Source: Bacillota bacterium (GTDB lineage Bacteria > Bacillota > JAAYKD01). From it: DNA of 64,000 nt. The position numbers were made by a program, and so were the translations under genes. Positions 3,001 to 40,967 of this stretch are shown one piece after another; within the stretch, counting starts at the first letter, position 1; each line of letters begins with the position of its first letter. The stretch spans positions 1,760,001-1,824,000 of the forward strand of contig OY762825.2 of the NCBI GenBank assembly GCA_963666425.2. The letters are read 5' to 3'. The notes under the pieces are model-generated. The model was given only the letters and a program-made list of their open reading frames with translations. It had not been told where the DNA came from and did not search any database.

Positions 3001-4714
3001 CACCAACCTCTGGTTTAATGTAGGAAGTCCATTGGGATCTTACACCTTCCTCGTAAAACAAGGCAATGTCTGGAGCCAGGCAGTGATCGAACAGACACCG
3101 ATCGCAGCGAATCTGGTAACAACCAACTTAACAGGAATTCACAATAATAAGGTATATCAGGAATTCCAATTAAAGGTTGGTACCACCGTTATTGATCTGA
3201 GCGCAGCCAACATAACAAGCCTTACTGTATTAAAACCGGGTGAAACCACAGTCACCACCCTCACACCGGACACAGACAGCACTTTATGGTTCAATGTGCA
3301 GAACGCAGCCGGTAATCATGTATTCACCGTTGTTGACACGCTAGGCAGAACCTATACGGCCACTTTAGCCTGGACAGCACCGCTTACAGTAAACGCAGCG
3401 GCAACCGGTTTATCCGGAGAGCACGAAAGCATATTCTATGCAGAATATAGCTTAGGAGCTCTGAATCTCTCCAGCTTTGATGCGATGTATGAAATCAAAG
3501 CGGATGGAAGCGTTGTTGCTCTGACAGCCAACACGGACACGAACCTCTGGTTTAATGTAGGAAGCCCATTGGGATCTTACAGCTTCCTCGTAAAACAAGG
3601 CAATGTCTGGAGCCAGGCAGTGATTGAACAGACACCGATCGCAGCGAATCTGGTAACAACCAACTTAACCGGAATTCACAATAATAAGGTATATCAGGAA
3701 TTCCAATTAAAGGTTGGTACCACCGTTATTGATCTGAGCGCAGCCAACATAACAAGCCTTACTGTATTAAAACCGGGTGAAACCACAGTCACCACCCTCA
3801 CACCGGACACAGACAGCACTTTATGGTTCAATGTGCAGAACGCAGCCGGTAATCATGTATTCACCGTTGTTGACACGCTAGGCAGAACCTATACAGCAAC
3901 CTTAGTCTGGACAGTACCTGCAGCGGTCAACGCAGTAGCAACCGGTTTATCCGGAGAGCACGAAGGCGTATTCTATGCAGAATATAGCTTAGGAGCTCTG
4001 AATCTCTCCAGCTTTGATGCGATGTATGAAATCAAACCGGATGGCAGTATTGTAGCTCTGACGGCCAACACAGACACGAACCTCTGGTTTAATGTAGGAA
4101 GCCCATTGGGATCTTATACCTTCCTCGTAAAACAAGGCAATGTCTGGAGCCAGGCAGTGATTGAACAGGCCCCGATCGCAGCGAATCTGGTAACAACCAA
4201 CTTAACCGGAATTCATAGCAATAAGGTATATCAGGAATTCCAATTAAAGGTTGGTACCACCGTTATTGATCTGAGCGCGGCCAACGTGGCAAGTCTGACC
4301 GTATTAAAGCCGGGTGAAACCACAGCCACCACCCTCATACCGGATACGGACAGCACCTTATGGTTCAATGTGCAGAATGCAGCCGGTAATCATGTATTCA
4401 CTGTCGTTGACAATTACGGCAAAACCTACGAAGCCACCTTGGTCTGGACAGCGCCGGTAATGGTAACCGTAGAGGAAACTGGTCGGTCAGGAGAACACGA
4501 AGGCATATTATATGCAGAATGTACCTTGGGCACTCTGGATCTCTCCAGCTTTGATGCGATGTATGAAATCAAACCGGATGGAAGCGTTGTTGCTCTGACA
4601 GCCAACACAGATACCAACCTCTGGTTTAATCAAAGTAGTCCTGTGGGAGTCTACATCTTCCTTGTAAAACAAGGCAGTGTATGGAGCGAGGCAGTAATAG
4701 ATCTTAATAACTAG
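77..4714 (+). CDS. SLH-anchored surface protein with beta-rich middle region and C-terminal tandem repeats (1545 aa)
   Basis: RBS AGGAGG, signal peptide (..VLA/AE), three N-terminal SLH motifs (LTRAQMA, ITREEAF, ITRAEFA), GDLIIGDGVGNGEVTLDGV..GGGENS region, six 179-aa repeats. Confidence 0.9.
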   Translation: MRRRIVPVLLTLLMVIAMFSTTVLAAEFSDMPNDWSTAALEKAVENGLIVGDNGHIRAGDHLTRAQMAAIVNRAFGTTEMVAIDQFTDVEIGAWYYDDMAKAVQMKTFVGDGNKLYPENPITREEAFAVLARALKLTGASSDKLDVFSDKTSISEWALDEVASLASAGYVNGSNGRILAKDFITRAEFAQLMDNLVSHYITKAATYTENYSGNVMVNVPGVILKNLTITGDLIIGDGVGNGEVTLDGVTVTGRTLVRGGGENSVKLLNNSNLQNIIIARVDGVVRIYAEDGTEIGETTIDGSDNVTLEGNFGTITLLANDVTVTATNANIEAATIDGDNSQIIVGATSNIGTVTMNSNDATLEVMGAVTTVLSTETAQNSTIIASENATIESITANSESSVQGNGTVTNVTANAAVTVETQNTTVTVGENLSGILINGEEVAAGEAIVTPGELPPVIVPTTPIEEPEQIVYIHASMVPTGLTGIHNNKIYQEFQLKVGTTVIDLSATSVASIRVIKPGTIVAATLTPDTDSTLWFNVQNVTGEYSYLVTDRTGKNYEATLAWTAPLTVNAAATGLSGEHESIFYAEYSLGALNLSSFDAMYEIKADGSVVALTANTDTNLWFNVGSPLGSYSFLIKQGNVWSQAVIEQTPIAANLVTTNLTGIHNNKVYQEFQLKVGTTVIDLSAANITSLTVLKPGETTVTTLTPDTDSTLWFNVQNAAGNHVFTVVDTLGRTYTATLVWTVPAAVNAVATGLSGEHEGVFYAEYSLGALNLSSFDAMYEIKPDGSIVALTANTDTNLWFNVGSPLGSYTFLVKQGNVWSQAVIEQAPIAANLVTTNLTGIHSNKVYQEFQLKVGTTVIDLSAANVASLTVLKPGETTATTLTPDTDSTLWFNVQNAAGNHVFTVVDTLGRTYTATLVWTVPAVVNAAATGLSGEHEGVFYAEYSLGALNLSSFDAMYEIKADGSVVALTANTDTNLWFNVGSPLGSYTFLVKQGNVWSQAVIEQTPIAANLVTTNLTGIHNNKVYQEFQLKVGTTVIDLSAANITSLTVLKPGETTVTTLTPDTDSTLWFNVQNAAGNHVFTVVDTLGRTYTATLAWTAPLTVNAAATGLSGEHESIFYAEYSLGALNLSSFDAMYEIKADGSVVALTANTDTNLWFNVGSPLGSYSFLVKQGNVWSQAVIEQTPIAANLVTTNLTGIHNNKVYQEFQLKVGTTVIDLSAANITSLTVLKPGETTVTTLTPDTDSTLWFNVQNAAGNHVFTVVDTLGRTYTATLVWTVPAAVNAVATGLSGEHEGVFYAEYSLGALNLSSFDAMYEIKPDGSIVALTANTDTNLWFNVGSPLGSYTFLVKQGNVWSQAVIEQAPIAANLVTTNLTGIHSNKVYQEFQLKVGTTVIDLSAANVASLTVLKPGETTATTLIPDTDSTLWFNVQNAAGNHVFTVVDNYGKTYEATLVWTAPVMVTVEETGRSGEHEGILYAECTLGTLDLSSFDAMYEIKPDGSVVALTANTDTNLWFNQSSPVGVYIFLVKQGSVWSEAVIDLNN
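1478..4700 (+). repeat. Intragenic tandem repeat, 537-bp unit, about 6 copies
   Basis: Junction GAACAG(a/g)C(a/c)CCGATCGCAGCGAATCTGG recurs at 2015, 2552, 3089, 3626, 4163 (period 537); first and last units diverged, so outer boundaries are approximate. Confidence 0.95.
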
Positions 4715-20337: not shown

Positions 20338-20656
20338 ATTTGTGGCAATCACCTCCTGAGCGAAACTAAAAAAAACAACGGTTGGGATGATTCGGATTAC
20401 CCTCAGTATAACACAAAGCAAAGCGGGATGACTAGAGGATTTGCAGCAAATTGCCGCAAGAATTTCACCCTTTGTCTCAAGTGTTGAGTCGATGAGCATC
20501 AAAAAAAGTAAAAGAGAATCGGTTTCTAATCGTGTGATGGATAATAATTTCCCAGATAAATAACACATCTGAGTAGGAAATTTCAGATATTGCTTTTCCA
20601 GAAAATAAGAGTTACCTTATTTCCAGAAAATTTTCCTTAAATAACTATAAAACAGC

Positions 20657-20685
20657 TTGTAATTGTTCCCGTTATTCGCTATAAT
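20657..20685 (+). promoter_or_regulatory. sigmaA promoter of the agr-like operon
   Basis: TTGTAA-17-TATAAT; direct repeat TTTCCAGAAAAT upstream at 20595 and 20620. Confidence 0.6.
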
Positions 20686-20722
20686 ATGCTCATATGTAAA
20701 AAAATCGGGAGCCAGGAATAAA

Positions 20723-21271
20723 ATGATTATTGAATTTATTGCAGCGATGATTTTGGCGAAATTCAAGCATTACAATTTGAAATATGCTTTTAATTCCTGG
20801 ACCTTTTATCCCGTGCTGCTGACGCAGTGCATCTTGATTTTTTTCCAGATGAGTATTTTTTTCGGAACTTATTATTTTTTGCAATTCGTACCAATCGTTG
20901 AACCGATCATCATCGTATCATTCCTTTTTGCCATCCTTGCTTATCAGCTCTATACACCGGCGATCATCGGCTCGGTTTGTATTGGCATCGGTTCCCTGCT
21001 GAATAAGTTTGTTATGGCGCAGAATGGCGGCTTGATGCCGGTTTATCCGAGTTTGTCTTATCTGACCGGTTATGCAACACCACAGTCCTTTCAGATTGCG
21101 GACGGTGTGCACATCTTGGGCAGTGAAGTGACCCGTTATAAGCTGCTAACCGATTATATTGACTTTGGTTATTGCATTCTGAGCCCCGGGGATGTCTTCA
21201 TCCATCTGTTTTCTTTTCTCATGCTTTATGCGATTTTTAAAGCGGCTCATCAACATTATTCTAGTGTGTAG
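20723..21271 (+). CDS. DUF5317-like integral membrane protein
   Basis: Multiple TM segments; G.LLN..V..QNGGLMPV and LTDYID..SPGD signature. Confidence 0.75.
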   Translation: MIIEFIAAMILAKFKHYNLKYAFNSWTFYPVLLTQCILIFFQMSIFFGTYYFLQFVPIVEPIIIVSFLFAILAYQLYTPAIIGSVCIGIGSLLNKFVMAQNGGLMPVYPSLSYLTGYATPQSFQIADGVHILGSEVTRYKLLTDYIDFGYCILSPGDVFIHLFSFLMLYAIFKAAHQHYSSV

Positions 21272-21303
21272 ACAGAACTGCATCAATGAGAGGATGAATC
21301 AAT

Positions 21304-21825
21304 TTGGACGGAATAGCGATTAGTGTTACTCAGCTTTTAATAAAAGGTATTCCTGAGGGATTTCTCACGATGCTTGCCTTGCATGTTTTAACCCGGACAA
21401 AGATTGATGGGAAGAAATATTCACTTCTCAGCTCAGTTTATGTTGTTTTAACTTACTTGGTTAGATTCTTACCAATCACACTTGGTGTGAACACAATGAT
21501 ATCCCTGTTGACATTGATTTTACTTTTTCAAGTAACGTATAAAACGCAATTGGGTAAGGTTGTTAAATCGGTTGTTTCTGCTGTTTTGATCATGACCTTT
21601 GTCATGATTTCAGAAATACTGAATATGTTGATTCTCTATATTATTTTTGGTCAGAGTAAGGCGGAAGAGTTACTTAATTTCGGGTCGGAATTAACACAAA
21701 GTTTAGTAACTATTCCATCCTCGATTTTTCTTGGCCTTTTTATAATCCTTTCCCACGTTATTTTAACCAGGATGGAAAAAAGGAAAAACGAACATGGAGA
21801 AGCTAACAAGAAAACTGGCGACTGA
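21304..21825 (+). CDS. Small multi-pass membrane protein, agr-associated
   Basis: About 4-5 hydrophobic segments, GIPE and RFLPI motifs; overlaps the agrB start by 32 nt. Confidence 0.75.
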   Translation: MDGIAISVTQLLIKGIPEGFLTMLALHVLTRTKIDGKKYSLLSSVYVVLTYLVRFLPITLGVNTMISLLTLILLFQVTYKTQLGKVVKSVVSAVLIMTFVMISEILNMLILYIIFGQSKAEELLNFGSELTQSLVTIPSSIFLGLFIILSHVILTRMEKRKNEHGEANKKTGD

Positions 21826-22441
21826 GGTCGCTCGCTCGCTCGATTACGATGCCGAGCGCGAAGCGGTAATCGCTTACGGTCTGATCGGAATCGTACAGAT
21901 TATCATCACCTTTACTTTGGTTCTGATTTTTGGAATTTTGGTCGGTGCACCGGTGGAAGCACTCATTGTCTGCGCAGCGGTTGGCCTGTTGAGGAAATAC
22001 AGCGGCGGTGCTCACGCAGGTTCGGCGGAATTATGCAATGCAATCAGCGTTGTTTACAGCACGTCGGCAGCATTTGTGGCCAAAAGATATTTCTCTACGG
22101 TAGATCATCTCATTCCGCAGCTGTCGTTCATCGCGGTCATCTTCGGCGTTTCGTACCTCATCGTCTACCGGTTGGCGCCGGTAGATTCAGCCAATAAACC
22201 GATTAAAACGGTGAAAAAGAAAAAAAGGATGAGACAAGGCAGCTTGATCATCCTGACTGTTTACTTTCTGTTATCGATTGCCCTGATTCTTATCGGCTGT
22301 GATTATGGGGTTTACGCCTCATACGGGATAAGCCTTCTGTTTGGAGTTATTTGGCAGATTTTCACTCTTACCTCCCCAGGAGCAGCCCTGCTTCACAGCC
22401 TGGATCTTTTATTCCAAATAAAGGAGGTGAACAATTTATGA
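21794..22441 (+). CDS. agrB: Accessory gene regulator B (autoinducer maturation peptidase)
   Basis: I.YGL, LRKYSGGAHA..C (catalytic His/Cys), APVDSANKPI motifs. Confidence 0.93.
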   Translation: MEKLTRKLATEVARSLDYDAEREAVIAYGLIGIVQIIITFTLVLIFGILVGAPVEALIVCAAVGLLRKYSGGAHAGSAELCNAISVVYSTSAAFVAKRYFSTVDHLIPQLSFIAVIFGVSYLIVYRLAPVDSANKPIKTVKKKKRMRQGSLIILTVYFLLSIALILIGCDYGVYASYGISLLFGVIWQIFTLTSPGAALLHSLDLLFQIKEVNNL

Positions 22442-22560
22442 AGAAGTTCTATGGTATCGTTGCTGCTGTTTCTACAATCATGGCAGCCGCTCTCGCTACT
22501 TCTGCCTGCTGGTGGTTTGCTTATCAGCCGGAAGAACCCGCGTCTTTGAGAGAAGAGTAG
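22438..22560 (+). CDS. agrD: AgrD cyclic thiolactone autoinducer precursor (40 aa)
   Basis: AAGGAGGTG RBS, ATGA overlap with agrB; MKKFYGIVAAVSTIMAAALATSA-CWWFA-YQPEEPASLREE = amphipathic leader, Cys core, acidic PxxP tail. Confidence 0.93.
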   Translation: MKKFYGIVAAVSTIMAAALATSACWWFAYQPEEPASLREE

Positions 22561-22570
22561 AAAAACCCAT

Positions 22571-22608
22571 ATAGGAGGCTTTTTTTGAAGCCTCCTATCT
22601 CTTTCTTT
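22571..22608 (+). terminator. Hairpin after agrD (terminator or RNA stabiliser)
   Basis: ATAGGAGGCTT-TTTTTG-AAGCCTCCTAT followed by CTCTTTCTTT. Confidence 0.6.
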
Positions 22609-22633
22609 GCGGTAATTTTAAGGAGGCGTTGAC

Positions 22634-24295
22634 ATGTTTGAACTTGATAAAGAAAAGCAGACACAAATTAATCAAATTTTACAGCTTGTTAAAATCGCCT
22701 CTTTGTGTTTTCCGTCGATCGCTTTCTTTCAGTATTATGCCAAAAGCAACGCCTCTGCCGTTTTTTTTACCTACAGTTTTTTGCTGGTTGCCGTCTTATT
22801 AACGATGCTCGGCATATATATGTTATTGTATTATATTCAGGATATCATGAGCGATGAATATAGGATCAAACCCTGGATCAGTCCGATGATCTCGCTGACC
22901 ATCGCATTTCTATCAGTAATCCTGACAGGTACTTATGAGAGCAGTTATAAATTCTTGTTTGTACTCGTGATTATTTTCACCAGCATCGAGTGCAATATGA
23001 GAATCAGCATCACCATTTCCAGCTTGTCGGCGTTGATCGTGCTCGTCACCGATTTGGTTTACGCTCCCGCCAATGGGGTCAATTCTTATTTTGAGAGCGA
23101 TTTGTTCTTGGCAAGCGTGTTTTTGATCATTTCCTGGACCATCAGCTTTTATGTTGATTTAGGCAAAAAGCATATTGAGAGCTTAGCGAATTTAGCCAAT
23201 ACAGACGGCTTAACCGGATTGAATAATCATCGTTTTTTTTATGACGCTCTGACGGAACAAGTGAAAAAGAGTAAAACCGAAGAAAGTGCGCTCTCTTTGC
23301 TTTTTATTGATATTGATGATTTTAAATATTACAATGATCTCTATGGTCATCAAAAAGGGGACCAGGTGATCAAAACATTGGCGCTGCTGATGAACAATAC
23401 ACTGCCAAAAAAAAGTATCATCGCACGCTATGGCGGTGAGGAATTTACGATTCTATTGCCCGGCAGCGGAGAAGAGCAGGCGCTGCAGGAAGCGGAAACG
23501 CTGCGACGGGTTGTGCATGAATATAGATTTGAGGGAGAAGAGAATTTGCCCGGGGGTACCTTGACCATCTCAATCGGGGTTTCTTCCCTGAGTCCTAAAA
23601 TTAAGTCCGAAGCCGATCTTTTAAAATGCGCCGATGATGCTTGTTACCGGGCGAAATTCCTGCGCAAGAACCGGGTAGAGTCTTACTACTCTATCCTGGA
23701 AGAACTGCAGAATGAAGTGGATGAATCCGATAAATCGATGATCGCATCGATCAAGACACTGATCGCCGTGATCAATGCCAAGGATAAATACACTTATCTG
23801 CATGTCGAAAAAGTGGTTTATTACTGCAGTCTGCTGGCGGATCAGCAAGGGATGAGCGAGACAGATAAGAAGAAATTTGTTTATGCTGCCTATTTGCATG
23901 ATATCGGGAAGATTAATATTCCGGAAGAAATTTTGATGAAGGTTGAAAAACTAACACCGGAAGAGTGGAATACACTGAAAAATCATCCGCAGAATGCAGC
24001 AGAGATCATTAAAAACATTGAGTCTTTGAAGACAGTGGTACCGATTATTCTGCAGCATCACGAAAAATTTGACGGAACAGGCTATCCCAACAAATTGAAG
24101 GGGGATGAAATTCATCCTTTAGCCAGACTGCTGACCGTGATTGACAGCTTCGATGCCATGACTTCTGTCAGACCGTATCAACTGAAAAAAACGTATGCTC
24201 AGGCAATTGAGGAACTGAAACGGTGCAGCGGAAGCCAGTTCGATCCGGATGCCGTTCAGCTTTTTGTACAGGTTGTCAAGAGTATAATTTCATAA
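22634..24295 (+). CDS. Membrane-bound GGDEF + HD-GYP c-di-GMP enzyme
   Basis: About 5-6 N-terminal TMs; DGLTGL.N, DIDDFK..ND..GH, RYGGEEF; HDIGK, HHEKFDGTGYP, DSFDAMTS.RPY. Confidence 0.93.
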   Translation: MFELDKEKQTQINQILQLVKIASLCFPSIAFFQYYAKSNASAVFFTYSFLLVAVLLTMLGIYMLLYYIQDIMSDEYRIKPWISPMISLTIAFLSVILTGTYESSYKFLFVLVIIFTSIECNMRISITISSLSALIVLVTDLVYAPANGVNSYFESDLFLASVFLIISWTISFYVDLGKKHIESLANLANTDGLTGLNNHRFFYDALTEQVKKSKTEESALSLLFIDIDDFKYYNDLYGHQKGDQVIKTLALLMNNTLPKKSIIARYGGEEFTILLPGSGEEQALQEAETLRRVVHEYRFEGEENLPGGTLTISIGVSSLSPKIKSEADLLKCADDACYRAKFLRKNRVESYYSILEELQNEVDESDKSMIASIKTLIAVINAKDKYTYLHVEKVVYYCSLLADQQGMSETDKKKFVYAAYLHDIGKINIPEEILMKVEKLTPEEWNTLKNHPQNAAEIIKNIESLKTVVPIILQHHEKFDGTGYPNKLKGDEIHPLARLLTVIDSFDAMTSVRPYQLKKTYAQAIEELKRCSGSQFDPDAVQLFVQVVKSIIS

Positions 24296-24300
24296 AAACA

Positions 24301-24351
24301 AGAAAGCACTTTTGAATAACCGGCGATAGCCCTATTCGGAGGTGCTTTTCT
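24301..24351 (+). terminator. Intrinsic terminator
   Basis: AAAGCACTTTTGAATA..TATTCGGAGGTGCTTTTCT. Confidence 0.6.
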
Positions 24352-24417
24352 GTAATTTCGACTTCCCTACCATAACGCTTGCCTGTGCCGAACGCTCCAT
24401 CGCTTACTTTCCCGGAA

Positions 24418-24461: not shown

Positions 24462-24538
24462 AATTCCAAATGAAATGAGTGAAGAAATCATTTGTACGAA
24501 AAAGACTGCCGAAGCGCAGAAATCAAATGGAGGGCAAA

Positions 24539-26998
24539 ATGGCTGAAGAACAGAAAATACTGATTGTCGGTGGAGTGGCAGGCGGAGCAACAGCAGCTGC
24601 CAGACTGCGTCGGTTGGATGAAAAAGCAGAAATTATCCTATTTGAACGAGGGGAATATATTTCCTTTGCCAATTGCGGTTTACCTTACTATATCGGAGGA
24701 GAGATTAAAGAAAAATCGGCCCTGACATTGCAGACACCGGAGAGTTTCCATGCGCGTTTTGATGTGGATGTGCGCAGCGGGAACGAAGTAATTGCGATCG
24801 AACCGAAACTGAAGCAAGTGACCGTTTTAGATCATCATAACGGTATTACTTATACAGAAAGCTATGATAAGCTGATTCTATCGATGGGAGCAGAGGCAAT
24901 CAGACCGAATATCGAGGGCATCCGCTCCGATAAAGTGTTTACCCTGCGCTCGATTCCGGATACCTATCGAATCAAGGAATACATCGAACAGAAAAAACCT
25001 GGCAGCGTCGCAATTGTCGGCGGTGGCTTCATCGGCATCGAGATGGCGGAAAATTTGCAGCGGATGGGTTTGACGGTCACGTTAATTGATCTGGCAGACC
25101 AAGTCTTGGCGCCGATTGATTATGATATGGCAAGCGATGTTCATCGCCAGATGGAAAGCAAAGGCGTTCATTTAATGCTGGGCAATTCCGTCCGTTCCAT
25201 TATGGATTTAGGCAATACCTTGAAGCTTGCTTTAAACAGCGGTGAATTGTCTGCCGACATGCTGATCATGGCAATTGGCGTCCGCCCGGAAACGAAAATT
25301 GCGAAAGAAGCCGGCATCACCGTCAATGAGCGCGGCGCTATTTTGGTTGATCAGCGCATGCTGACCAATCTTCCGGATATTTATGCGGTTGGCGATGCGG
25401 TGGCGATTACCGATTTTATCACGGGTGAGCAAGGGTATGTGGCTTTGGCGGGACCTGCCAATAAGCAGGGTAGGATCGCAGCGGATCAAATTTGTGGCAT
25501 AGACAGTCAATATGGCGGCACGCAGGGCTCTGCCATTCTGAAAGTGTTTGATTTAACGGTCGCTTCCAGCGGCATCAATGAAAAAACAGCAAAAAAATTA
25601 GGACTCAATTACGATAAATCCTTTACCTATTCCGCCAATCATGCGGGCTATTATCCCGGTGCTGTTAATATGTCGATCAAAACAATTTTCGAAAAAACCA
25701 CCGGTAAAATCCTGGGCGTGCAAATTGTTGGTTATGATGGCTCTGATAAACGCTGTGATGTCTTTGCAACGGCGATTCGTGCCGGCATGACAGCCACCGA
25801 TTTGACCCGCTTGGAATTATGTTATGCGCCGCCCTTCAGTTCAGCCAAAGATCCGGTCAATATGGCCGGTTACGTGATTGAAAATCTCTTAACAGGAAAA
25901 GTGAAGAATTTCCATTGGCATGATGTGGAGGGGTTGCCGCGTGATGGCAGCGTCACTTTGCTCGATGTGCGTACGGCGATTGAATATGAAAATGGCCATA
26001 TGGAAGGATTCGTTAACCTGCCGCTGGATGATTTGAGAATGCATTTGGATGAATTGAACCGCAGCAAGCCGATTTATCTGACTTGTCAAATTGGACTGCG
26101 TGGTTATATTGCAGCCAGAATTCTCTCACAAAATGGTTTTGATGTCTATAATCTCAGCGGCGGCTATCGCCTCTACCATTCGATTTTTGGTACGCATCCG
26201 CCAGTACCATCCATTCAGGGTTTTAATGCAGATACTCAACGTGCAGATGAACCGAAAAGTGAAAGAAAAATTAAGCAAACGATTCAATTGGATGCCTGCG
26301 GCTTGCAGTGCCCCGGACCGATTGTGAAACTGTCCAATGCCTTAAGCGAAGCAAGTGAAGGTGATCTGATCGAAATATCAACCACCGATCCGGCTTTTAC
26401 CAGTGACTTGGAAGGTTTCTGCCGCCGGACAGGTAATATTTTACTGGAATCTACCAGTAATAAAGGAATCAATATTGCGCAGGTTCAGAAAGGCAGCAAG
26501 CCACTGCAAACAGGAACAGCGGCTGCCAAAGACGGCAAGAATATCATCGTCTTTTCCGGCGATTTGGATAAGGCGATTGCCAGTTTTATTATCGCCAATG
26601 CCGCCGCAGCCATGGGGCGCAAAGTGAGCATGTTCTTCACTTTTTGGGGATTAAACATTCTGCGCAAGCCGGAGAAAGTGAATGTGAAAAAGGATTTCAT
26701 TTCCACGATGTTCGGCATGATGATGCCGCGCGGTGCGCGGAATCTCACAATTTCCAAGATGAATATGGGCGGTATGGGCGCGAAAATGATCCGTTACGTG
26801 ATGAAATCAAAAAATATCGCCAGTTTGGAAGACTTGATCAAAATGGCGCAAGCCAACGGTGTTGAATTGATTGCCTGCTCCATGAGTATGGATGTCATGG
26901 GCATTCGGATAGAAGAATTAATGGATGGTGTGAAAATTTCCGGGGCTGCGGCGATGCTGGCCAATGCGGAAGAATCTGATATGTCACTTTTCATTTAG
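24539..26998 (+). CDS. CoA-disulfide/persulfide reductase fused to rhodanese, TusA and DsrE-like domains
   Basis: GGVAGG, SFANCG, GGGFIG, LCYAPP; rhodanese LLDVR..CQIGLRG; TusA DACGLQCPGP; DsrE2 FSGDLDK..FFTFWGL..ACSMSM. Confidence 0.9.
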   Translation: MAEEQKILIVGGVAGGATAAARLRRLDEKAEIILFERGEYISFANCGLPYYIGGEIKEKSALTLQTPESFHARFDVDVRSGNEVIAIEPKLKQVTVLDHHNGITYTESYDKLILSMGAEAIRPNIEGIRSDKVFTLRSIPDTYRIKEYIEQKKPGSVAIVGGGFIGIEMAENLQRMGLTVTLIDLADQVLAPIDYDMASDVHRQMESKGVHLMLGNSVRSIMDLGNTLKLALNSGELSADMLIMAIGVRPETKIAKEAGITVNERGAILVDQRMLTNLPDIYAVGDAVAITDFITGEQGYVALAGPANKQGRIAADQICGIDSQYGGTQGSAILKVFDLTVASSGINEKTAKKLGLNYDKSFTYSANHAGYYPGAVNMSIKTIFEKTTGKILGVQIVGYDGSDKRCDVFATAIRAGMTATDLTRLELCYAPPFSSAKDPVNMAGYVIENLLTGKVKNFHWHDVEGLPRDGSVTLLDVRTAIEYENGHMEGFVNLPLDDLRMHLDELNRSKPIYLTCQIGLRGYIAARILSQNGFDVYNLSGGYRLYHSIFGTHPPVPSIQGFNADTQRADEPKSERKIKQTIQLDACGLQCPGPIVKLSNALSEASEGDLIEISTTDPAFTSDLEGFCRRTGNILLESTSNKGINIAQVQKGSKPLQTGTAAAKDGKNIIVFSGDLDKAIASFIIANAAAAMGRKVSMFFTFWGLNILRKPEKVNVKKDFISTMFGMMMPRGARNLTISKMNMGGMGAKMIRYVMKSKNIASLEDLIKMAQANGVELIACSMSMDVMGIRIEELMDGVKISGAAAMLANAEESDMSLFI

Positions 26999-34713: not shown

Positions 34714-35538
34714 TTGAGTTGGAAGAGAATTTCAATTGTGGCTTCCTATTGCTTGCTGCTTATTTTCTTAGTTTCAATCACTGGGTTTGCGCAAGGAGAG
34801 AGCCCGATTCGGGTTGGCATCATCGATTCAGGAATTTCATCTTCTGCATCGATCACGCACTTGGCAGGGTATAATTATCTTTCTGAAACAAAAGAAACGG
34901 AGGATGACATCGGTCATGGCACTGCTTTGGCAGGCATCGTTGCAGTGATCGCCCCCGCGGCTGAAATTATCCCTTTAAAAATTATCGGTCAATCTGCTTT
35001 GACGACTGCCAAAGTCACTGCGGCTGCCATTGCTGATGCTGTGGATGTGTATGACTGCGATATTCTGCTGATGGCCTTTGGCCAGCCGGATACCATCGAA
35101 TTACGCAAAGCCATCGAGCATGCAGCAGCAGAAGGTGTGATCATGATCAGCGCGGTCGGTAATGATGGTTATCTCTCCTATCGGCGCAATCGCATCTATT
35201 ATCCTGCCGGTTATGATGGCGTCATTGCAGTCGGTTCGACGGATGCAGCCGGCAAGATCGCCTATTTTTCACAGCGCAACAAAAGTGTGTTCGTCACAAC
35301 CAATGGCATCGGGTTAGAGACCGTGAAGACAGATGGTACGAAAAGATTCGTCAGCGGAACCTCTTTTTCTGCGGCATGCATCGCCGGTTTGGCAGCCAGA
35401 GAGCAGATCAGAGATCCGGATGATTTTAAAGAATATCTGAAAACCAATGCAAGTGATCAGGGCAGTCAGGGGTTCGATCATTCCTATGGCTGGGGATGGC
35501 TCAAGATAGAGAATCAAGCAGAGGAGGCTGACAAATGA
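34714..35538 (+). CDS. Secreted S8 (subtilisin-like) serine peptidase, no evident propeptide
   Basis: Signal peptide; catalytic triad IIDSG, HGT, SGTSFS; oxyanion AVGN; YGWG. Confidence 0.88.
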   Translation: MSWKRISIVASYCLLLIFLVSITGFAQGESPIRVGIIDSGISSSASITHLAGYNYLSETKETEDDIGHGTALAGIVAVIAPAAEIIPLKIIGQSALTTAKVTAAAIADAVDVYDCDILLMAFGQPDTIELRKAIEHAAAEGVIMISAVGNDGYLSYRRNRIYYPAGYDGVIAVGSTDAAGKIAYFSQRNKSVFVTTNGIGLETVKTDGTKRFVSGTSFSAACIAGLAAREQIRDPDDFKEYLKTNASDQGSQGFDHSYGWGWLKIENQAEEADK

Positions 35539-38500
35539 GTAAAAAATCAGGAATTAGGCCAGGTAATATTTTGCTCTTATCGGTATTTTTTATGTTGCTC
35601 TTCGTTTTTACGCAATCGGTACTGGCTTACAGCTATAATACAAATTTACTGAATGTTGTGAATAATACAGGCAAAGAGTATACCAGACAAAATACACAGA
35701 ATATCTACCTCAGTCCCGAGGATCAAGAACGGGCAAATAAGGGTGATATGTATTACAATGCTTCGGTGCATATCGGCGCCAACGGAAGCAGAACGGTAAC
35801 CAGACACTTGTATGTCAGGTGCTATGATGCCAATGGTAATTTACTGGATAATTATGAAGTGAGCGGTTCGACCTATTGGGTGGCGCATGCCAGCTATAAT
35901 TATGATAACAATGATCAAAAAATCCCTGCCGGAACAGTCTATATTTATTATGATGCCTATGTTCATATCGGAACCTGGGGCGATCTTGAGTTGGAAAACA
36001 TGTCATTCAGCTTATATGACGCAGTCAAACCGGCTTATCTTTCGGTGGGAGTCACTTCGGTCAATGGCGGCTATCCCAATCCGGGAACTTATCCGATAGG
36101 CACCACCATTCGTTATTGCGTCAATTTTAATGAGGCTTTGGCTTCCGTCAGCGCCGGAACCGTAAGTACGACGATCGGCAGTGCAACCTATGTCGGTAAA
36201 AGCGCAGATCGGAAGTCTGTTTATTATGATTATGTGATTACAGGTACCTCTGCTACGGTCAGTGACTACAATTTGGTCAAAGTGGCGTCGGTTGTCAATC
36301 TGTCCGTGGCGGATGATGCAGGTAATTGGTCGGACGTGCAAAATCGCTATGCCCTGACGGACAACTACGGTATTTATATGGATAACAAGTATCCTTCTGT
36401 TTCTGCCTTTACGACCGAAGCAAGTGCAGACGCCTGCTATCTGGCCGGTGAACAGATTCGTTTCAATGTGACTTTTCACGAAAATATTTGGGTGAGCGGC
36501 AGTCCGGCAATCTCACTGTCTAACGGCGGTGTTGCAGTTTACACAAAAATGACCAACAGTGATACCAATGCGGCTGCTTTTATTTATACAGTAGCCGCCG
36601 GTGATACCAATACCTCGGCACTGGCCATTACCGCGATCAATTTCAACGGAATCGTCGATAAAGTGAATCAAAGCGCCACGAGCGATGGTTCTTATACCGC
36701 GAATCGATATAACAGTTTTTTAAGCGCTTACCGTTTATCGGTTGATACGATAGCACCGACGGTGAGCTTTGCGGATCCTTCCAATAACTATCACAACAAT
36801 ACGTATCAAGTCAGTTTCACACCGGCCGACAGCGTCAGCGGTGTCAATGAAAAGTATGCCGTCTGGACGACCTCTTCCAGCAATCTACCTCCTGCTTTTC
36901 CGGAATCGGCCGGAGTGGGTGCGAATAATCTGGTCAGCCTGCCTGCAAGCAGTGGAATTTACTATTTATGGGTCAAATTAGTCGATCTTGCCGGTAATAT
37001 CAGCAGTACAAAATCTCCCTATCTTTACTATTTTGATTTTACCCAACCGACGATTACTTTTACACCTACTTATATTAGCGGTTACACTGCCCTCGCCAGT
37101 ATGGTGATCACGGTCGGCGATAATGTCAGTGTTGCCACAAAAAACTATGAATGGCGGAATGCTTCCAATATAAAAGTCGTAGAAGGCAGCTTGACCGATG
37201 CATTGCTTTATCCGAGCGCTGATGGAATCTATTCTCTGCTCGTTACGGCTGTGGATACGGTAGGGAATCTTTTTACCAATACCATCAGCGATCTCTCGAT
37301 TGATAAAACAGGGCCAACGGTAGTTTTTAATCCCACCGGAAATAACACTTGGGCGAAAATTCATACGATTGCCATCACGATTCAGGATGCAAAAACCGGC
37401 ATCCTCAATTACTCCTACCAATTTACCACCTCGGTTTCGACACCGGTTGCGAATTGGAGTGATACGTTGAATACCTCATTCGATACACCGAATGGTTCGT
37501 CCGGCACTTATTATTTGCATATCAAGGCAGTCGACCATGCCAATAATATCAGCTATTTTACCAGCAATGGATTCAATACCGATAATGTTGCTCCCAGCGT
37601 CGTGATCTCCCCCAATAGCAATGCGAGCAATCTGGGACTAAGTTCTTATGATATTACCGTTGCGGCAGAAGATGCCATCAGCGCCACGGGCGATCTGGTT
37701 GCCGGCTATGCCTTTTCCACTGCCGCTGCGGCGGGCGGACTCACTTATGCAGCCTTGAATCTGACCGACGGCGCCGCACTGCTCACGTTAGCTGAGTTCC
37801 ATCAAATCACTTATTTATATGTCAGTGTCACGGATACTGCCGGTAATAACAGGATCAGTCGTTCCGAGGCATTTACCCCGGATATCAGTGCTCCTACCGG
37901 CAGCATCACCAACGCTTCAGCCGCCTATCTCAATCTGCCATCTATCGATTTGAGTTTCACTGCGGCAGATAACTATATCGCTGCCAATGATCTCAACATG
38001 CAATTAACGCTTGACGGCAGCGTAGGGGAATGGGAAGTCTTTACTGAAAGCAAAACGATCGCTTTTGCTGCCGTTGAAGGGAACCATACCATTTCAGTAC
38101 AGTTCAGGGATGTTTGTGGAAATATTTCCCAAGTTTATTCAACAACATTTACCTATGATGTGACTGCTCCGCAGATTTTAATCCATTATGACCTTCCCAC
38201 GGCAACCAAGAACAATGTGACTGCCACTGCCACGACGGCATCGAATGCAGACAGTATTACCGGGGTGACCAGTAAGCTGTTTACCGAAAATGGTAGTTTT
38301 ACCTTTTATGCCCGCGATTATGCCGGCAATGAATCGAGTCTGGCTGCAGTCGTCAACTGGATTGATCAAACCGCTCCTACCATCAGCTTCACCTCGGTAG
38401 AGTTTGATAACGCCAAGCACCAGTCGGCAACCGTCACGATTACCGCTGCCGATAATGCCAATGGCATCGCTGCGGTTGTATATCGCTTGCTGCAAAATAC

Positions 38501-40967
38501 AGTGCCGTTAGGCATTTGGCAAAGCTGTGATAACGGAGCGCAGATTGAAATCAACAGCGTAACCGACGGCAGTTTCACAGTGGAAGCAGTCGCGACCGAT
38601 GGAGTAGGCAACAGCCTGACCAAGGTCTCCGGAATTGTCTTAATCGATGTGACTGCACCAACCGCTGCGGCAGCCTACTCTATCGTAACAAGAACCGCAC
38701 AGAATGTGGAAGTGCATCTTAGCTTCAATGAAGCGGTTACCATCACAAACAATGGCGGTTTACCAACTTATCTCTTTACGGACAATGGCACTTTTAGCTT
38801 CGAATTTGTAGATCAAGCCGGCAATACCGCATCTATGTCTACCGCGGTAACCTGGATTGACCGCAACAAGCCACAGGCAAGGATTGCCATGACAGACGAA
38901 AGCTATCATGCCGTCAGTCAGGATCAATGGGTTAATTATAATTTGATTGTCTCTATTATTCCCCCGGCCCAATCAACGATAGAGAATCTGACCTTCAACA
39001 ATGTCTTGATTGGCGAGGCAGTCGGAGTCATAGCGTCACCGACAGAGCTCAATACTTATCTGGTCACCACCTATGGCGTCTTTCACTTTACCGTCCATGA
39101 TACCGATACACTACTGGAAAGCGAAGGAGGATTTACGGTTCGGATTGATAAATCTCAACCGCAAATCGATCCATCATTGGAAATCAGAACAACGACCGCC
39201 TGGACAAACAGCGATGTGGTAGTAACGGTGACGGCGCTGGATGACCTCTCTCCAGTGACCTACACGAACGGCAGCAGTTTTACTTATACCGAAAACGGAG
39301 TGCACCGTTTCCTCTTTACCGATGCAGCGGGCAACCAAAACAGTTATGAGGTCACGGTCGGTAATATCGATAAAGCCGTTCCCGAGGCAAGTGTAGTTTT
39401 CACTGTCAACGGAGAAGCCTATGATGGTGATTTTACCAATCAGAATATCAAGGCAACCATCGCGTTTGTCAGTTTATCACCGGTCACTGTGACAAATAAT
39501 AACGCCGGTTTGGATTATACTTTTACTGCGAACGGTGAGTTTACTTATCTTTATCAGGATGCGGCAGGCAATGCCGGCAGCAAGATGATATCGGTGGATA
39601 CGATCGATAAAAAAGCACCCACCGCTTATCTGACTTACAGCAAAACCAGCTGGACCAACACAGACGTGATTGCCACGCTGCATGTCTCGGATGATTGGAG
39701 CGGTGCCGTCAACGACGGAGAAACCTACACCTTCACTGAGAATGGCACGCACGCCTTTACAGCCAGAGATTTTGCCGGCAATACACTGCTCGTCAATGCA
39801 AGTACGAGCCGAATTGACAAAACAGCTCCCGTTCTGTCCTACAGTCTGTCTCCCTCCATAAAAACGCCCTTCAGTGTTTACGCCACCGTCACCGCCAATG
39901 AGAGCGTAACTTGGCTGAATAACGGCGGCAAACCTTCAAAGCAGTTTAATTCCAATGACAGTTTTATTTTTATCGCCAAGGATTACGCAGGCAATCAAGC
40001 GGAGATTACCGTCACCGTTGCCAATATTGATCGCACGCCAACCAATGTGGTTCTGGAATATTCTACTACCGCTCCAACCAATCAGGATGTCTATGTCAAT
40101 ATTTACCCGCAAGATAAATTGCATGACCTCATCTTCATCGTGAATAATGACAATGCCCGCGTGAAAAAATTCGAAGAAAATGGTGAATTTACCTTCACCT
40201 ACCGAAACACAGCGGGGATCACCGGAGAGAAAATAGCGAATGTCACGAATATTTGTAAGACGCCGCCGGTGGTTACGGTTGTCTATTCTACAACGGATTT
40301 GACGACCGGTGATGTGATTGCTACTTTGACTGCCGATAAGGCGGTGACCTATCCGTTTGCTGCTTTGAACGGAAAATATACCTTCAGTAAAAACGATAAG
40401 GTGCAGATTCCAGTCACTGATTTGGTGGGAAATGTCACGAATGTGATCCTGGAAGTGACTTGGATCGATCGGGATGCGCCGGTATTTAGCTTGACAAACC
40501 AATACCAGTGCATCGGTGTCAATACGGCATTTGATGTGGCAGCCGGCGTCAGCGTAACTGATGCCAATGCGATTCCCAATGGCTTGGAAATCATCGGTTC
40601 GGTGAATACAGCAGTCAATGGCGATTATATCATTACCTACCGAGCGACGGATGCAGCCGGCAATACCGGGGAATGCATGCGCTATGTCACTGTTTATGAT
40701 CCAACCAAATTTAACGTGATTATCAATGGCAGAATGCCGATCAATGGCGAAGTGGAAATCTCAACCCATCAGCTGAAATTAGAAACGATCAATCAAAATG
40801 GAACGCTCAAATTATTGTTTGCAGCCGGCAAAAAAATGTCGGGTTATTTCAAAAAGGACGGCACCGTGATTACTCCGGAATACACATTTACAGACCAAGG
40901 TTATTACACCATCTATCTGCAGGACGCGAATCGCAACACGAAACTCGTTTATGTATTTGTGAAATAG
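35535..40967 (+). CDS. Large secreted Ig-like repeat protein (1810 aa)
   Basis: Signal peptide; many D..GN / IDKTAP / WTN.DV / FTENG repeats; DUF5011-like module near the C-terminus; no SLH or LPxTG; ATGA-coupled to the peptidase. Confidence 0.85.
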   Translation: MSKKSGIRPGNILLLSVFFMLLFVFTQSVLAYSYNTNLLNVVNNTGKEYTRQNTQNIYLSPEDQERANKGDMYYNASVHIGANGSRTVTRHLYVRCYDANGNLLDNYEVSGSTYWVAHASYNYDNNDQKIPAGTVYIYYDAYVHIGTWGDLELENMSFSLYDAVKPAYLSVGVTSVNGGYPNPGTYPIGTTIRYCVNFNEALASVSAGTVSTTIGSATYVGKSADRKSVYYDYVITGTSATVSDYNLVKVASVVNLSVADDAGNWSDVQNRYALTDNYGIYMDNKYPSVSAFTTEASADACYLAGEQIRFNVTFHENIWVSGSPAISLSNGGVAVYTKMTNSDTNAAAFIYTVAAGDTNTSALAITAINFNGIVDKVNQSATSDGSYTANRYNSFLSAYRLSVDTIAPTVSFADPSNNYHNNTYQVSFTPADSVSGVNEKYAVWTTSSSNLPPAFPESAGVGANNLVSLPASSGIYYLWVKLVDLAGNISSTKSPYLYYFDFTQPTITFTPTYISGYTALASMVITVGDNVSVATKNYEWRNASNIKVVEGSLTDALLYPSADGIYSLLVTAVDTVGNLFTNTISDLSIDKTGPTVVFNPTGNNTWAKIHTIAITIQDAKTGILNYSYQFTTSVSTPVANWSDTLNTSFDTPNGSSGTYYLHIKAVDHANNISYFTSNGFNTDNVAPSVVISPNSNASNLGLSSYDITVAAEDAISATGDLVAGYAFSTAAAAGGLTYAALNLTDGAALLTLAEFHQITYLYVSVTDTAGNNRISRSEAFTPDISAPTGSITNASAAYLNLPSIDLSFTAADNYIAANDLNMQLTLDGSVGEWEVFTESKTIAFAAVEGNHTISVQFRDVCGNISQVYSTTFTYDVTAPQILIHYDLPTATKNNVTATATTASNADSITGVTSKLFTENGSFTFYARDYAGNESSLAAVVNWIDQTAPTISFTSVEFDNAKHQSATVTITAADNANGIAAVVYRLLQNTVPLGIWQSCDNGAQIEINSVTDGSFTVEAVATDGVGNSLTKVSGIVLIDVTAPTAAAAYSIVTRTAQNVEVHLSFNEAVTITNNGGLPTYLFTDNGTFSFEFVDQAGNTASMSTAVTWIDRNKPQARIAMTDESYHAVSQDQWVNYNLIVSIIPPAQSTIENLTFNNVLIGEAVGVIASPTELNTYLVTTYGVFHFTVHDTDTLLESEGGFTVRIDKSQPQIDPSLEIRTTTAWTNSDVVVTVTALDDLSPVTYTNGSSFTYTENGVHRFLFTDAAGNQNSYEVTVGNIDKAVPEASVVFTVNGEAYDGDFTNQNIKATIAFVSLSPVTVTNNNAGLDYTFTANGEFTYLYQDAAGNAGSKMISVDTIDKKAPTAYLTYSKTSWTNTDVIATLHVSDDWSGAVNDGETYTFTENGTHAFTARDFAGNTLLVNASTSRIDKTAPVLSYSLSPSIKTPFSVYATVTANESVTWLNNGGKPSKQFNSNDSFIFIAKDYAGNQAEITVTVANIDRTPTNVVLEYSTTAPTNQDVYVNIYPQDKLHDLIFIVNNDNARVKKFEENGEFTFTYRNTAGITGEKIANVTNICKTPPVVTVVYSTTDLTTGDVIATLTADKAVTYPFAALNGKYTFSKNDKVQIPVTDLVGNVTNVILEVTWIDRDAPVFSLTNQYQCIGVNTAFDVAAGVSVTDANAIPNGLEIIGSVNTAVNGDYIITYRATDAAGNTGECMRYVTVYDPTKFNVIINGRMPINGEVEISTHQLKLETINQNGTLKLLFAAGKKMSGYFKKDGTVITPEYTFTDQGYYTIYLQDANRNTKLVYVFVK

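Follow-up and report, generated by a model that had tools for sequence, protein, structure and literature searches.

A recurrent agrBD cassette with a candidate stand-alone AgrC-type sensor module and a membrane GGDEF/HD-GYP enzyme in Bacillota

A genome of the Bacillota (GenBank assembly GCA_963666425.2) carries an agr-like locus of five genes that encodes neither the AgrC kinase nor the AgrA regulator. The analysed stretch, here called the window, comprises 64,000 nt of contig OY762825.2 (positions 1,760,001 to 1,824,000, forward strand), and the locus is at 20657..24351. The genes code for a DUF5317 membrane protein, a membrane protein of 173 amino acids (M173; its relatives are termed M), AgrB, AgrD and R. 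R is a protein of 553 amino acids (gene 22634-24295) with about six membrane helices, followed by the GGDEF and HD-GYP domains of cyclic di-guanosine monophosphate (c-di-GMP) metabolism. Its domain of six transmembrane (TM) helices is termed Rsens. From sequence comparisons and gene order, the cassette probably serves, on balance, a non-canonical agr quorum sensing in which M173 and Rsens sense the peptide and R sets the c-di-GMP level. An earlier interpretation of the DNA letters, the sequence-only reading, had proposed that R reads the peptide and that cell density sets c-di-GMP. Its core is sustained by the conserved linkage and the absence of AgrC and AgrA. It had missed the part of M173 and a hairpin between agrD and R, and the sensing step is deduced from gene order and domain swaps.

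The linkage of agrBD with the GGDEF/HD-GYP gene is widespread. The survey set comprised 61 genomes, the source genome and 60 relatives; the GTDB class of the source genome is represented by 10 genomes in the collection used. Outside the source genome, 19 loci encode homologs aligning from near the N-terminus of R. Directly upstream of 16 of these 19 full-length homologs, in more than 10 families, lie agrB and agrD; one of the 16 is cut by the contig end after agrD. M is kept in 16/16 complete cassettes, and the common core order is M-AgrB-AgrD-R. Counted from AgrB, 17 of the 35 loci in the 61 genomes carry an R-type enzyme. In a collection of named species, eight of nine near-full-length R homologs follow agrB-agrD, six of them with an intact M. 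Among these carriers are Parasporobacterium paucivorans DSM 15970 and metagenome-assembled genomes (MAGs) labelled Oscillospiraceae, Syntrophomonadaceae, Sarcina, Clostridiales and Eubacteriales. The sequence-only reading depended on a GGDEF gene conserved beside agrBD, and it survived all three counts.

The locus could also be a decayed or idle remnant that lost kinase and regulator, no longer signals and has the GGDEF/HD-GYP gene as a chance neighbour. This is hardly credible. None of the five frames of the window is interrupted, the catalytic residues are intact, and more than 10 families share the gene order at 30-60% identity, which indicates selection. Broken copies elsewhere would fit a remnant. 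In a Clostridiales MAG (L114), the frames of M, AgrB and R are split, and in L052 (G045) R is cut short inside the HD-GYP domain, with an open frame of 512 amino acids and one TGA inside the match. Both may represent real decay or assembly errors.

The source assembly (3.2 Mb, 18 contigs, 98.5% complete) has one AgrB. A search of this genome found no AgrC-type HPK10 kinase with SPOB_a and HATPase_c_5 domains. All matches to HATPase_c_5 (PF14501, GHKL family) had 36 bits or less; the two best, L005 and L006, belong to HisKA kinases whose neighbours are OmpR-type regulators. Likewise, no regulator with receiver and LytTR domains (REC-LytTR, AgrA type) was found in the 98.5% complete genome. Its sole LytTR match is a protein of 147 amino acids without a receiver domain, located next to a membrane protein of 147 amino acids (L004 1041-1929, - strand). 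They are a LytTR/membrane-inhibitor-type pair, not AgrA. The window contains two OmpR-type two-component systems, no LytTR regulator and no AgrC-type kinase. Both absences had been claimed for the window, and they extend to the whole genome, including the VirS and VirR types.

The source genome uses c-di-GMP, as it has 11 matches to R-like GGDEF/HD-GYP catalytic domains and two c-di-GMP-I riboswitches. The riboswitches are in tandem (69.5 and 66.9 bits, G000:C1:2482508-2482807), outside the window and about 220 nt upstream of a gene for a protein of 283 amino acids with a signal peptide. They are a possible c-di-GMP read-out of this genome. Neither a c-di-GMP-II riboswitch nor a PilZ domain was found in the source genome.

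M173 has no match in Pfam or NCBIfam. A profile of 15 M proteins (A1) is characterised by the motifs QGIPE and R.LP..G.(H/N)T. Gly61 and Glu104 are invariant, and Pro17, Glu18, Leu56, Pro57 and Thr64 nearly so. The AlphaFold model (predicted local distance difference test, pLDDT, 82.5) shows five long helices; about 20 residues form an outer segment, and the conserved polar residues are near the presumed outer face. Outer and inner faces were assigned by the positive-inside rule in this model and in that of Rsens. A fold search with the M model gave no whole-domain match (Foldseek E >= 0.46, VIA Z <= 7.7), and no solved AgrC membrane domain turned up. Searches of the PDB sequences with the M and Rsens profiles yielded nothing useful.

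The AgrB loci without R revealed the relation to AgrC. The A1 profile matched in 16 of these 18 loci. In three of the 16, it aligned with residues 3-150 of kinases of 446-460 amino acids with SPOB_a and HATPase_c_5 domains (E 7e-19 to 8e-22). Two of these fused kinases (L091, L104) have agrBD and a REC-LytTR regulator alongside and are canonical AgrC/AgrA pairs; the third (L098) has agrBD alongside and no regulator in the stretch read. In nine loci, M is a separate gene of about 160 amino acids directly upstream of a kinase of 276-331 amino acids with two TM helices, SPOB_a and HATPase_c_5. In the 61 genomes, the split form of AgrC is commoner than the fused form (nine versus three loci). One further M precedes a kinase of 652 amino acids that carries Rsens, and three have no adjacent kinase.

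In the fused kinases, the alignment to the staphylococcal AgrC model NF046015 begins at model position 8-44 and runs to about 395, whereas a split kinase aligns from position 139 only. M thus equates to AgrC positions 1 to about 138. No direct match to NF046015 was obtained with M173 or with a split M. By transitive homology and colinearity, M173 is a predicted kinase-less homolog of the N-terminal five-TM sensor module of AgrC. The determinants of ligand specificity in the AgrC of Staphylococcus aureus are located in this N-terminal part. The sequence-only reading had treated M173 as an uncharacterised extra; as an AgrC sensor-module homolog, it is a candidate for peptide binding at least equal to the membrane domain of R. 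M-type proteins are common. In an even sample of 401 genomes across the phylum, 146 had an M match, in open frames of about 150-210 or 440-496 amino acids. Public labels read 'hypothetical protein', with one JGI entry as 'signal transduction histidine kinase'. An ESM Atlas look-up of M173 returned Bacillota 'hypothetical protein' clusters only.

Rsens is a second membrane module that is unrelated to M in a profile-profile comparison. Its AlphaFold model (pLDDT 80.2) has six helices, and the outer loops have 10 residues or less. Weak matches of Rsens point to DUF4118 (seven of 17 members, best E 1e-5) and 6TM_PilS (five of 17, best E 5e-5). One relative (L233) passes the cut-off of DUF4118 with 29.6 versus 28.4 bits. 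The Rsens of the window shares the very short outer loops with intramembrane-sensing kinases of the DUF4118/KdpD and PilS types, which are split or depend on accessory proteins, but its match to 6TM_PilS is below the cut-off (E 0.04, 14 versus 27 bits). PilS senses a membrane protein partner. The only whole-domain structural matches were with the six-TM domains of membrane adenylyl cyclases (Z 11.1 over 177 and Z 10.3 over 172 aligned residues) and of the diguanylate cyclase ImcA (VIA Z 9.6 over 179 residues; Foldseek probability 0.99, E 0.07, TM-score 0.48-0.52), all at Z < 13, a range where a common helical arrangement alone may suffice.

The Rsens profile (A2) had matches in 87 of the 401 genomes. 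For 52 of the 59 best matches (E <= 1.3e-25), the same contig carries an M match no more than 2 kb away. Two of the remaining seven are at contig ends with M on another contig, and five are without M among the matches listed. Fourteen further loci with 17 Rsens proteins were fetched. GGDEF/HD-GYP enzymes account for four of the 17; the remaining 13 are kinases of the HisKA type that carry PAS, GAF or receiver domains, except for one in which HisKA is the only domain seen. M is present in twelve of the 14 loci, and agrB (in one case a fragment) together with agrD in eight. In two loci, a GAF-hybrid kinase takes the place of R in the order M-AgrB-AgrD-Rsens-kinase. In L055, L105 and L221-L224, M is located directly upstream of the Rsens protein and not beside agrB. 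Judged from these gene neighbourhoods, the conserved element is the membrane module, the pair of M and Rsens, and the output varies: GGDEF/HD-GYP, PAS/GAF/HisKA or hybrid kinases. Some cassettes have two Rsens proteins, a GGDEF/HD-GYP enzyme and a histidine kinase, around a single M and agrBD (L055, G059:C33; L229, G090:C68).

The catalytic part of R has the sequence features of both enzymes of c-di-GMP turnover. The GGDEF domain (PF00990, 144 bits; TIGR00254, 158 bits) contains GGEEF at residues 267-271 (23432-23446) and the metal-binding Asp in DIDDFK (226-231), as expected for a diguanylate cyclase. The HD-GYP domain (HD_5, PF13487, 138 bits) contains LHDIGK (421-426, 23894-23911), HHEKFDG (475-481) and GYP (483-485; HHE..GYP at 24056-24088), the motifs of a c-di-GMP phosphodiesterase. 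The position of the inhibitory site reads PKKS, without RxxD. The intact motifs and the missing RxxD had been recognised correctly before. All intact R orthologs keep the HD-GYP motifs; L052, being truncated, stops short of GYP. Three orthologs have a degenerate GGDEF motif: GGDGF in L047, GHDEF in L051 and GSDEF in L060. The phosphodiesterase may therefore be the constant output.

Peptide production is the task of an ordinary agr module. AgrB (129.7 bits to PF04647) is an AgrB-family membrane peptidase. R67, G72, H74, C81, P129 and P136 are invariant in 15 cassette AgrBs, and His74 and Cys81 are the catalytic pair. The AgrD precursor, encoded next to agrB, scored 48.5 bits with TIGR04223 (cut-off 19) and has the Cys/Ser ring position and the acidic C-terminal tail. 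By analogy with other AgrD peptides, the predicted ring is CWWFA, followed by YQPEEP..LREE. AgrD of the window is 72-92% identical to those of family relatives, and Cys/Ser plus four residues plus YQPE.P is the pattern common to the cassette AgrDs.

The DUF5317 protein (74.1 bits to PF17248, cut-off 25) precedes M only in cassettes whose AgrD reads SAC plus four residues plus YQPEEP, as in the window. An alignment of 10 orthologs (A4) revealed the invariant motifs NGG.MPV and DYID.G..LS.GD..IH with three invariant Asp, which looks like an enzyme site. As a speculation, DUF5317 could cleave the AgrD leader as a membrane peptidase. No mention of DUF5317 was found in the searchable open-access PMC and bioRxiv literature. 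The order DUF5317-M-AgrB-AgrD, with this AgrD subtype, is also present in a Sarcina (Clostridiaceae) MAG. For C. perfringens, we take the AgrD ring to be CLWFT.

The locus is agr-like in its working and stands outside the canonical four-gene kind, as represented by agrBDCA of S. aureus. Both use AgrB and AgrD for a cyclic autoinducing peptide, and the N-terminal membrane part of AgrC has its counterpart in M173 by the putative homology described above. In contrast, the kinase part of AgrC (HPK10) and AgrA (a LytTR response regulator) are missing from the locus and the genome, the sensor module is a separate protein, and the output is a six-TM GGDEF/HD-GYP enzyme.

Clostridia have related arrangements. 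The agr operon of C. perfringens is reported as CPE1563-CPE1562-agrB-agrD, with two uncharacterised upstream genes co-transcribed with agrBD (PMC2706048). This gene order had been given correctly in the sequence-only reading; CPE1563 and CPE1562 may be homologs of DUF5317 and M. A literature search for CPE1560 gave the 2009 C. perfringens paper only. C. perfringens has VirS and VirR, whereas the source genome is without such a kinase or LytTR response regulator. C. difficile agr1 is, like the locus of the window, an orphan agrBD: agrB1D1 has neither agrC nor agrA, the receptor of AgrD1 is said to remain 'elusive', and 'another unidentified transmembrane sensor' must exist (PMC10602386). Unlike here, the agr1 passages of that paper describe no link to a GGDEF/HD-GYP neighbour.

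A precedent for a six-TM cyclase under a separate membrane sensor, as proposed for M173 and R, is IsmP-ImcA of Pseudomonas aeruginosa, where a sensor protein in the membrane is reported to control a diguanylate cyclase (PMC10904736). The membrane domain of ImcA is the structural match of Rsens mentioned above, with the same reservation about helical arrangement. The sensor there is an iron-binding CHASE4 protein, not AgrC-type, and the system has no peptide signal and no HD-GYP domain. No description of agrBD linked to a GGDEF/HD-GYP enzyme, or of a stand-alone AgrC sensor module, was found in the open-access full text of PMC and bioRxiv. The cassette is a recurrent, apparently undescribed agr variant.

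Signalling may start with the processing of AgrD by AgrB into a small cyclic thiolactone peptide with the predicted CWWFA ring, possibly helped by DUF5317. M173 would bind the peptide at the outer membrane face and signal within the membrane to the six-TM domain of R. Alternatively, M173 and the six-TM domain may jointly form the binding site. The signal would shift the balance of R between making and breaking c-di-GMP. Cell density would thereby set c-di-GMP without phosphotransfer or a dedicated transcription factor. Partial termination at the hairpin between agrD and R may hold R below the level of the peptide precursor, and c-di-GMP would be read elsewhere in the genome, for example by the tandem c-di-GMP-I riboswitches in front of the secreted-protein gene. 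The roles of M173 as binder and R as transducer are proposed because the M/Rsens pair stays with agrBD while outputs vary, and because M is the predicted outer sensor half of AgrC. We infer peptide binding, the contact of M and R, an effect on c-di-GMP and read-through at the hairpin; by sequence, the peptide could shift c-di-GMP in either direction. A complex prediction of the six-TM domain of R with M173 scored 0.05 (mark 0.32) and bears on binding neither way.

A wider view is plausible, if somewhat doubtful. The N-terminal five-TM module of AgrC may be a portable peptide-binding subunit that is able to act as a separate protein and plugs into two-TM HPK10 kinases, six-TM HisKA kinases or six-TM GGDEF/HD-GYP enzymes. 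M173 and R would be a two-piece receptor that turns a thiolactone peptide directly into a change of c-di-GMP, and M-type proteins would be the missing receptors of orphan clostridial agrBD loci.

The six-TM domain of R may instead be the peptide receptor on its own, in line with the sequence-only reading. M173 would then contribute to peptide production, where it could help AgrB and DUF5317 to mature or export the peptide or to remove the leader, or it would be a peptide-binding decoy or immunity protein. We regard this as unlikely. M forms the N-terminal sensor of AgrC-type kinases, in fused or in split form, it is directly upstream of the Rsens protein where the gene order differs, and the outer loops of Rsens are very short. 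For a role in production speak the overlap of M173 with agrB by 32 nt and the position of M upstream of agrB in most GGDEF-type cassettes. In C. perfringens, an agrB mutant was reportedly complemented by the two upstream genes with agrBD, not by agrBD alone (PMC2706048); the promoter alone can explain this result. Six-TM modules of cyclases can be receptors, and the best whole-domain matches of Rsens are adenylyl cyclase membrane domains. Covariation was analysed in 27 cassettes by Mantel tests. Without a control, the divergence of any one of the parts (peptide, M, AgrB, Rsens, catalytic part) goes along with that of the others (r 0.5-0.6). When phylogeny was represented by the catalytic part, the partial r values lay between -0.05 and 0.13, and there was no clear peptide-specific covariation. 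The only partial correlation reaching p 0.05 was that of ring residues with Rsens (r 0.13), which is in favour of Rsens as receptor.

The hairpin between agrD and R bears on another explanation. It ends 35 nt before the start codon of R, which has a strong ribosome-binding site (AAGGAGG). A consensus scan of the window sequence gave no promoter-like site between agrD and R. A hairpin is present at this position in 14 of 16 related loci, with 13 distinct sequences and dG from -16 to -60 kcal/mol; one of the other two loci has none and one was not scorable. The position is kept across loci, the sequence is not. The hairpin is likely a partial terminator or a stabiliser of the RNA 3' end, giving more message for the peptide precursor than for R. 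The sequence-only reading had described five genes behind one promoter. The five co-directional genes were confirmed, all as open frames on the + strand (20723-24295), and the overlooked hairpin turns the plain operon into one with an internal attenuator-like element.

R may thus be co-expressed as an effector and not be a receptor. Read-through would raise R, its six-TM domain would sense another cue, such as the membrane state, or nothing, and a distant unrelated sensor would read the peptide. A hairpin without a separate promoter fits such a dosage control, and so do the lack of peptide-specific covariation and the two OmpR-type two-component systems of the window. For both C. perfringens and C. 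difficile, the known or sought-after sensor is described as encoded at another locus (PMC10602386). Nevertheless, we hold this explanation to be rather improbable. The six-TM module stays with agrBD while the output switches between GGDEF/HD-GYP, PAS-kinase and GAF-hybrid, which is unexpected for a passenger effector. The genome lacks an AgrC/VirS-type kinase and a REC-LytTR regulator, and the complete cassettes consistently keep M, the predicted homolog of the AgrC sensor module.

Several observations weigh against peptide sensing by M173 and R. Besides the low Z scores of Rsens and the outcome of the Mantel tests, four R homologs have no agrBD. Three of these are among the 19 in the survey (L054, L058, L061), with the most diverged N-termini and unrelated neighbours; the fourth is the ninth homolog of the named collection (L111, a Cellulosilyticaceae MAG). 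All four have diverged N-terminal domains or different neighbours. In the window, the neighbour with which M overlaps is agrB, not R. The C. perfringens peptide is reported to be read by VirS, a distant AgrC-like kinase (cited in PMC10602386). As this occurs despite two similar upstream genes, M-like proteins may serve another role, such as peptide maturation or export. The hairpin could be a full terminator, and R would then need another promoter, of which none was seen. The degenerate GGDEF motifs indicate that in some members of the R family the cyclase half may have a regulatory and not a catalytic role.

The features of the locus are compiled in Table 1. Both gene overlaps of the sequence-only reading, 21794/21825 and ATGA at 22438, are real. 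It had also assigned one sigmaA promoter. A site resembling it, CTTGTA(A/T)T...TATAAT, is found upstream of the orthologous genes in L043, L044, L045 and L113. The site itself stands as a consensus match, and the scan of promoter-like sites gave no excess over shuffled sequence (eight found, 8.4 expected). Just upstream of it, a perfect 12-nt direct repeat, TTTCCAGAAAAT, occurs in two copies 25 nt apart (20595-20631). It was rejected as a regulator site; the first copy is absent from the 90%-identical relative L043. The hairpin downstream of R was omitted by the simple hairpin scan, its interior being larger than the loop limit. An Rfam search of the window had no match.

Table 1. Features of the agr-like cassette in the window, and split AgrC loci of other genomes.
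Feature	Position	Strand	Basis and remarks
Sigma-70-type promoter-like site TTGTAA-17-TATAAT	20657..20685	+	10/12 consensus matches; 38 nt 5' of DUF5317 ATG; consensus match only
DUF5317 membrane protein	20723..21271	+	PF17248; 182 amino acids from ATG; TTG at 20663 would give 202 amino acids
M173, 173-amino-acid membrane protein, predicted kinase-less AgrC-type five-TM sensor module	21304..21825	+	A1 profile homology; no Pfam/NCBIfam match
AgrB, AgrD-processing membrane peptidase	21794..22441	+	PF04647; overlap with M173 32 nt
AgrD precursor, 40 amino acids	22438..22560	+	TIGR04223; ATGA overlap with agrB
G+C-rich hairpin, 12 bp, with CTCTTTCTTT tail, between agrD and R	22571..22598	+	Hairpin scan
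R, six-TM membrane domain (Rsens, residues 1-185)	22634..23188	+	A2 alignment; model with six helices
R, catalytic domains GGDEF (188-346) and HD-GYP (375-539)	23195..24295	+	PF00990, PF13487
Terminator-like hairpin 3' of R	24298..24352 (approx.)	+	RNAfold dG -27.8, then TTTTCTG
Split AgrC loci, other genomes	L092, L094-L097, L099, L100, L103, L106		M gene and two-TM kinase

Directly downstream of the cassette (24479-26998), the window encodes a fusion protein of 839 amino acids comprising a pyridine-nucleotide disulfide oxidoreductase, rhodanese, TusA and a DsrE-like domain. It looks like a sulfur-trafficking protein of the CoA-disulfide-reductase type. Very large proteins are encoded at 77-4711, 35535-40964, 40982-48058 and 57647-59932. 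Three of the four carry SLH domains (1545, 2359 and 762 amino acids); the one of 1810 amino acids has no Pfam match.

Peptide quorum sensing by agr in Firmicutes is understood as a kinase-regulator circuit. Many clostridial agrBD loci have no known receptor, and the cassette offers two candidate receptor parts for them: the putative stand-alone AgrC sensor module, in 146 of 401 genomes, and the six-TM transducer domain, in 87 of 401. Parasporobacterium paucivorans DSM 15970 is a cultured and non-pathogenic carrier of the five-gene cassette. c-di-GMP controls whether cells move or form biofilms and, in clostridia, decisions related to sporulation. If the proposed sensing is true, the cassette would provide a direct route from cell density to c-di-GMP.

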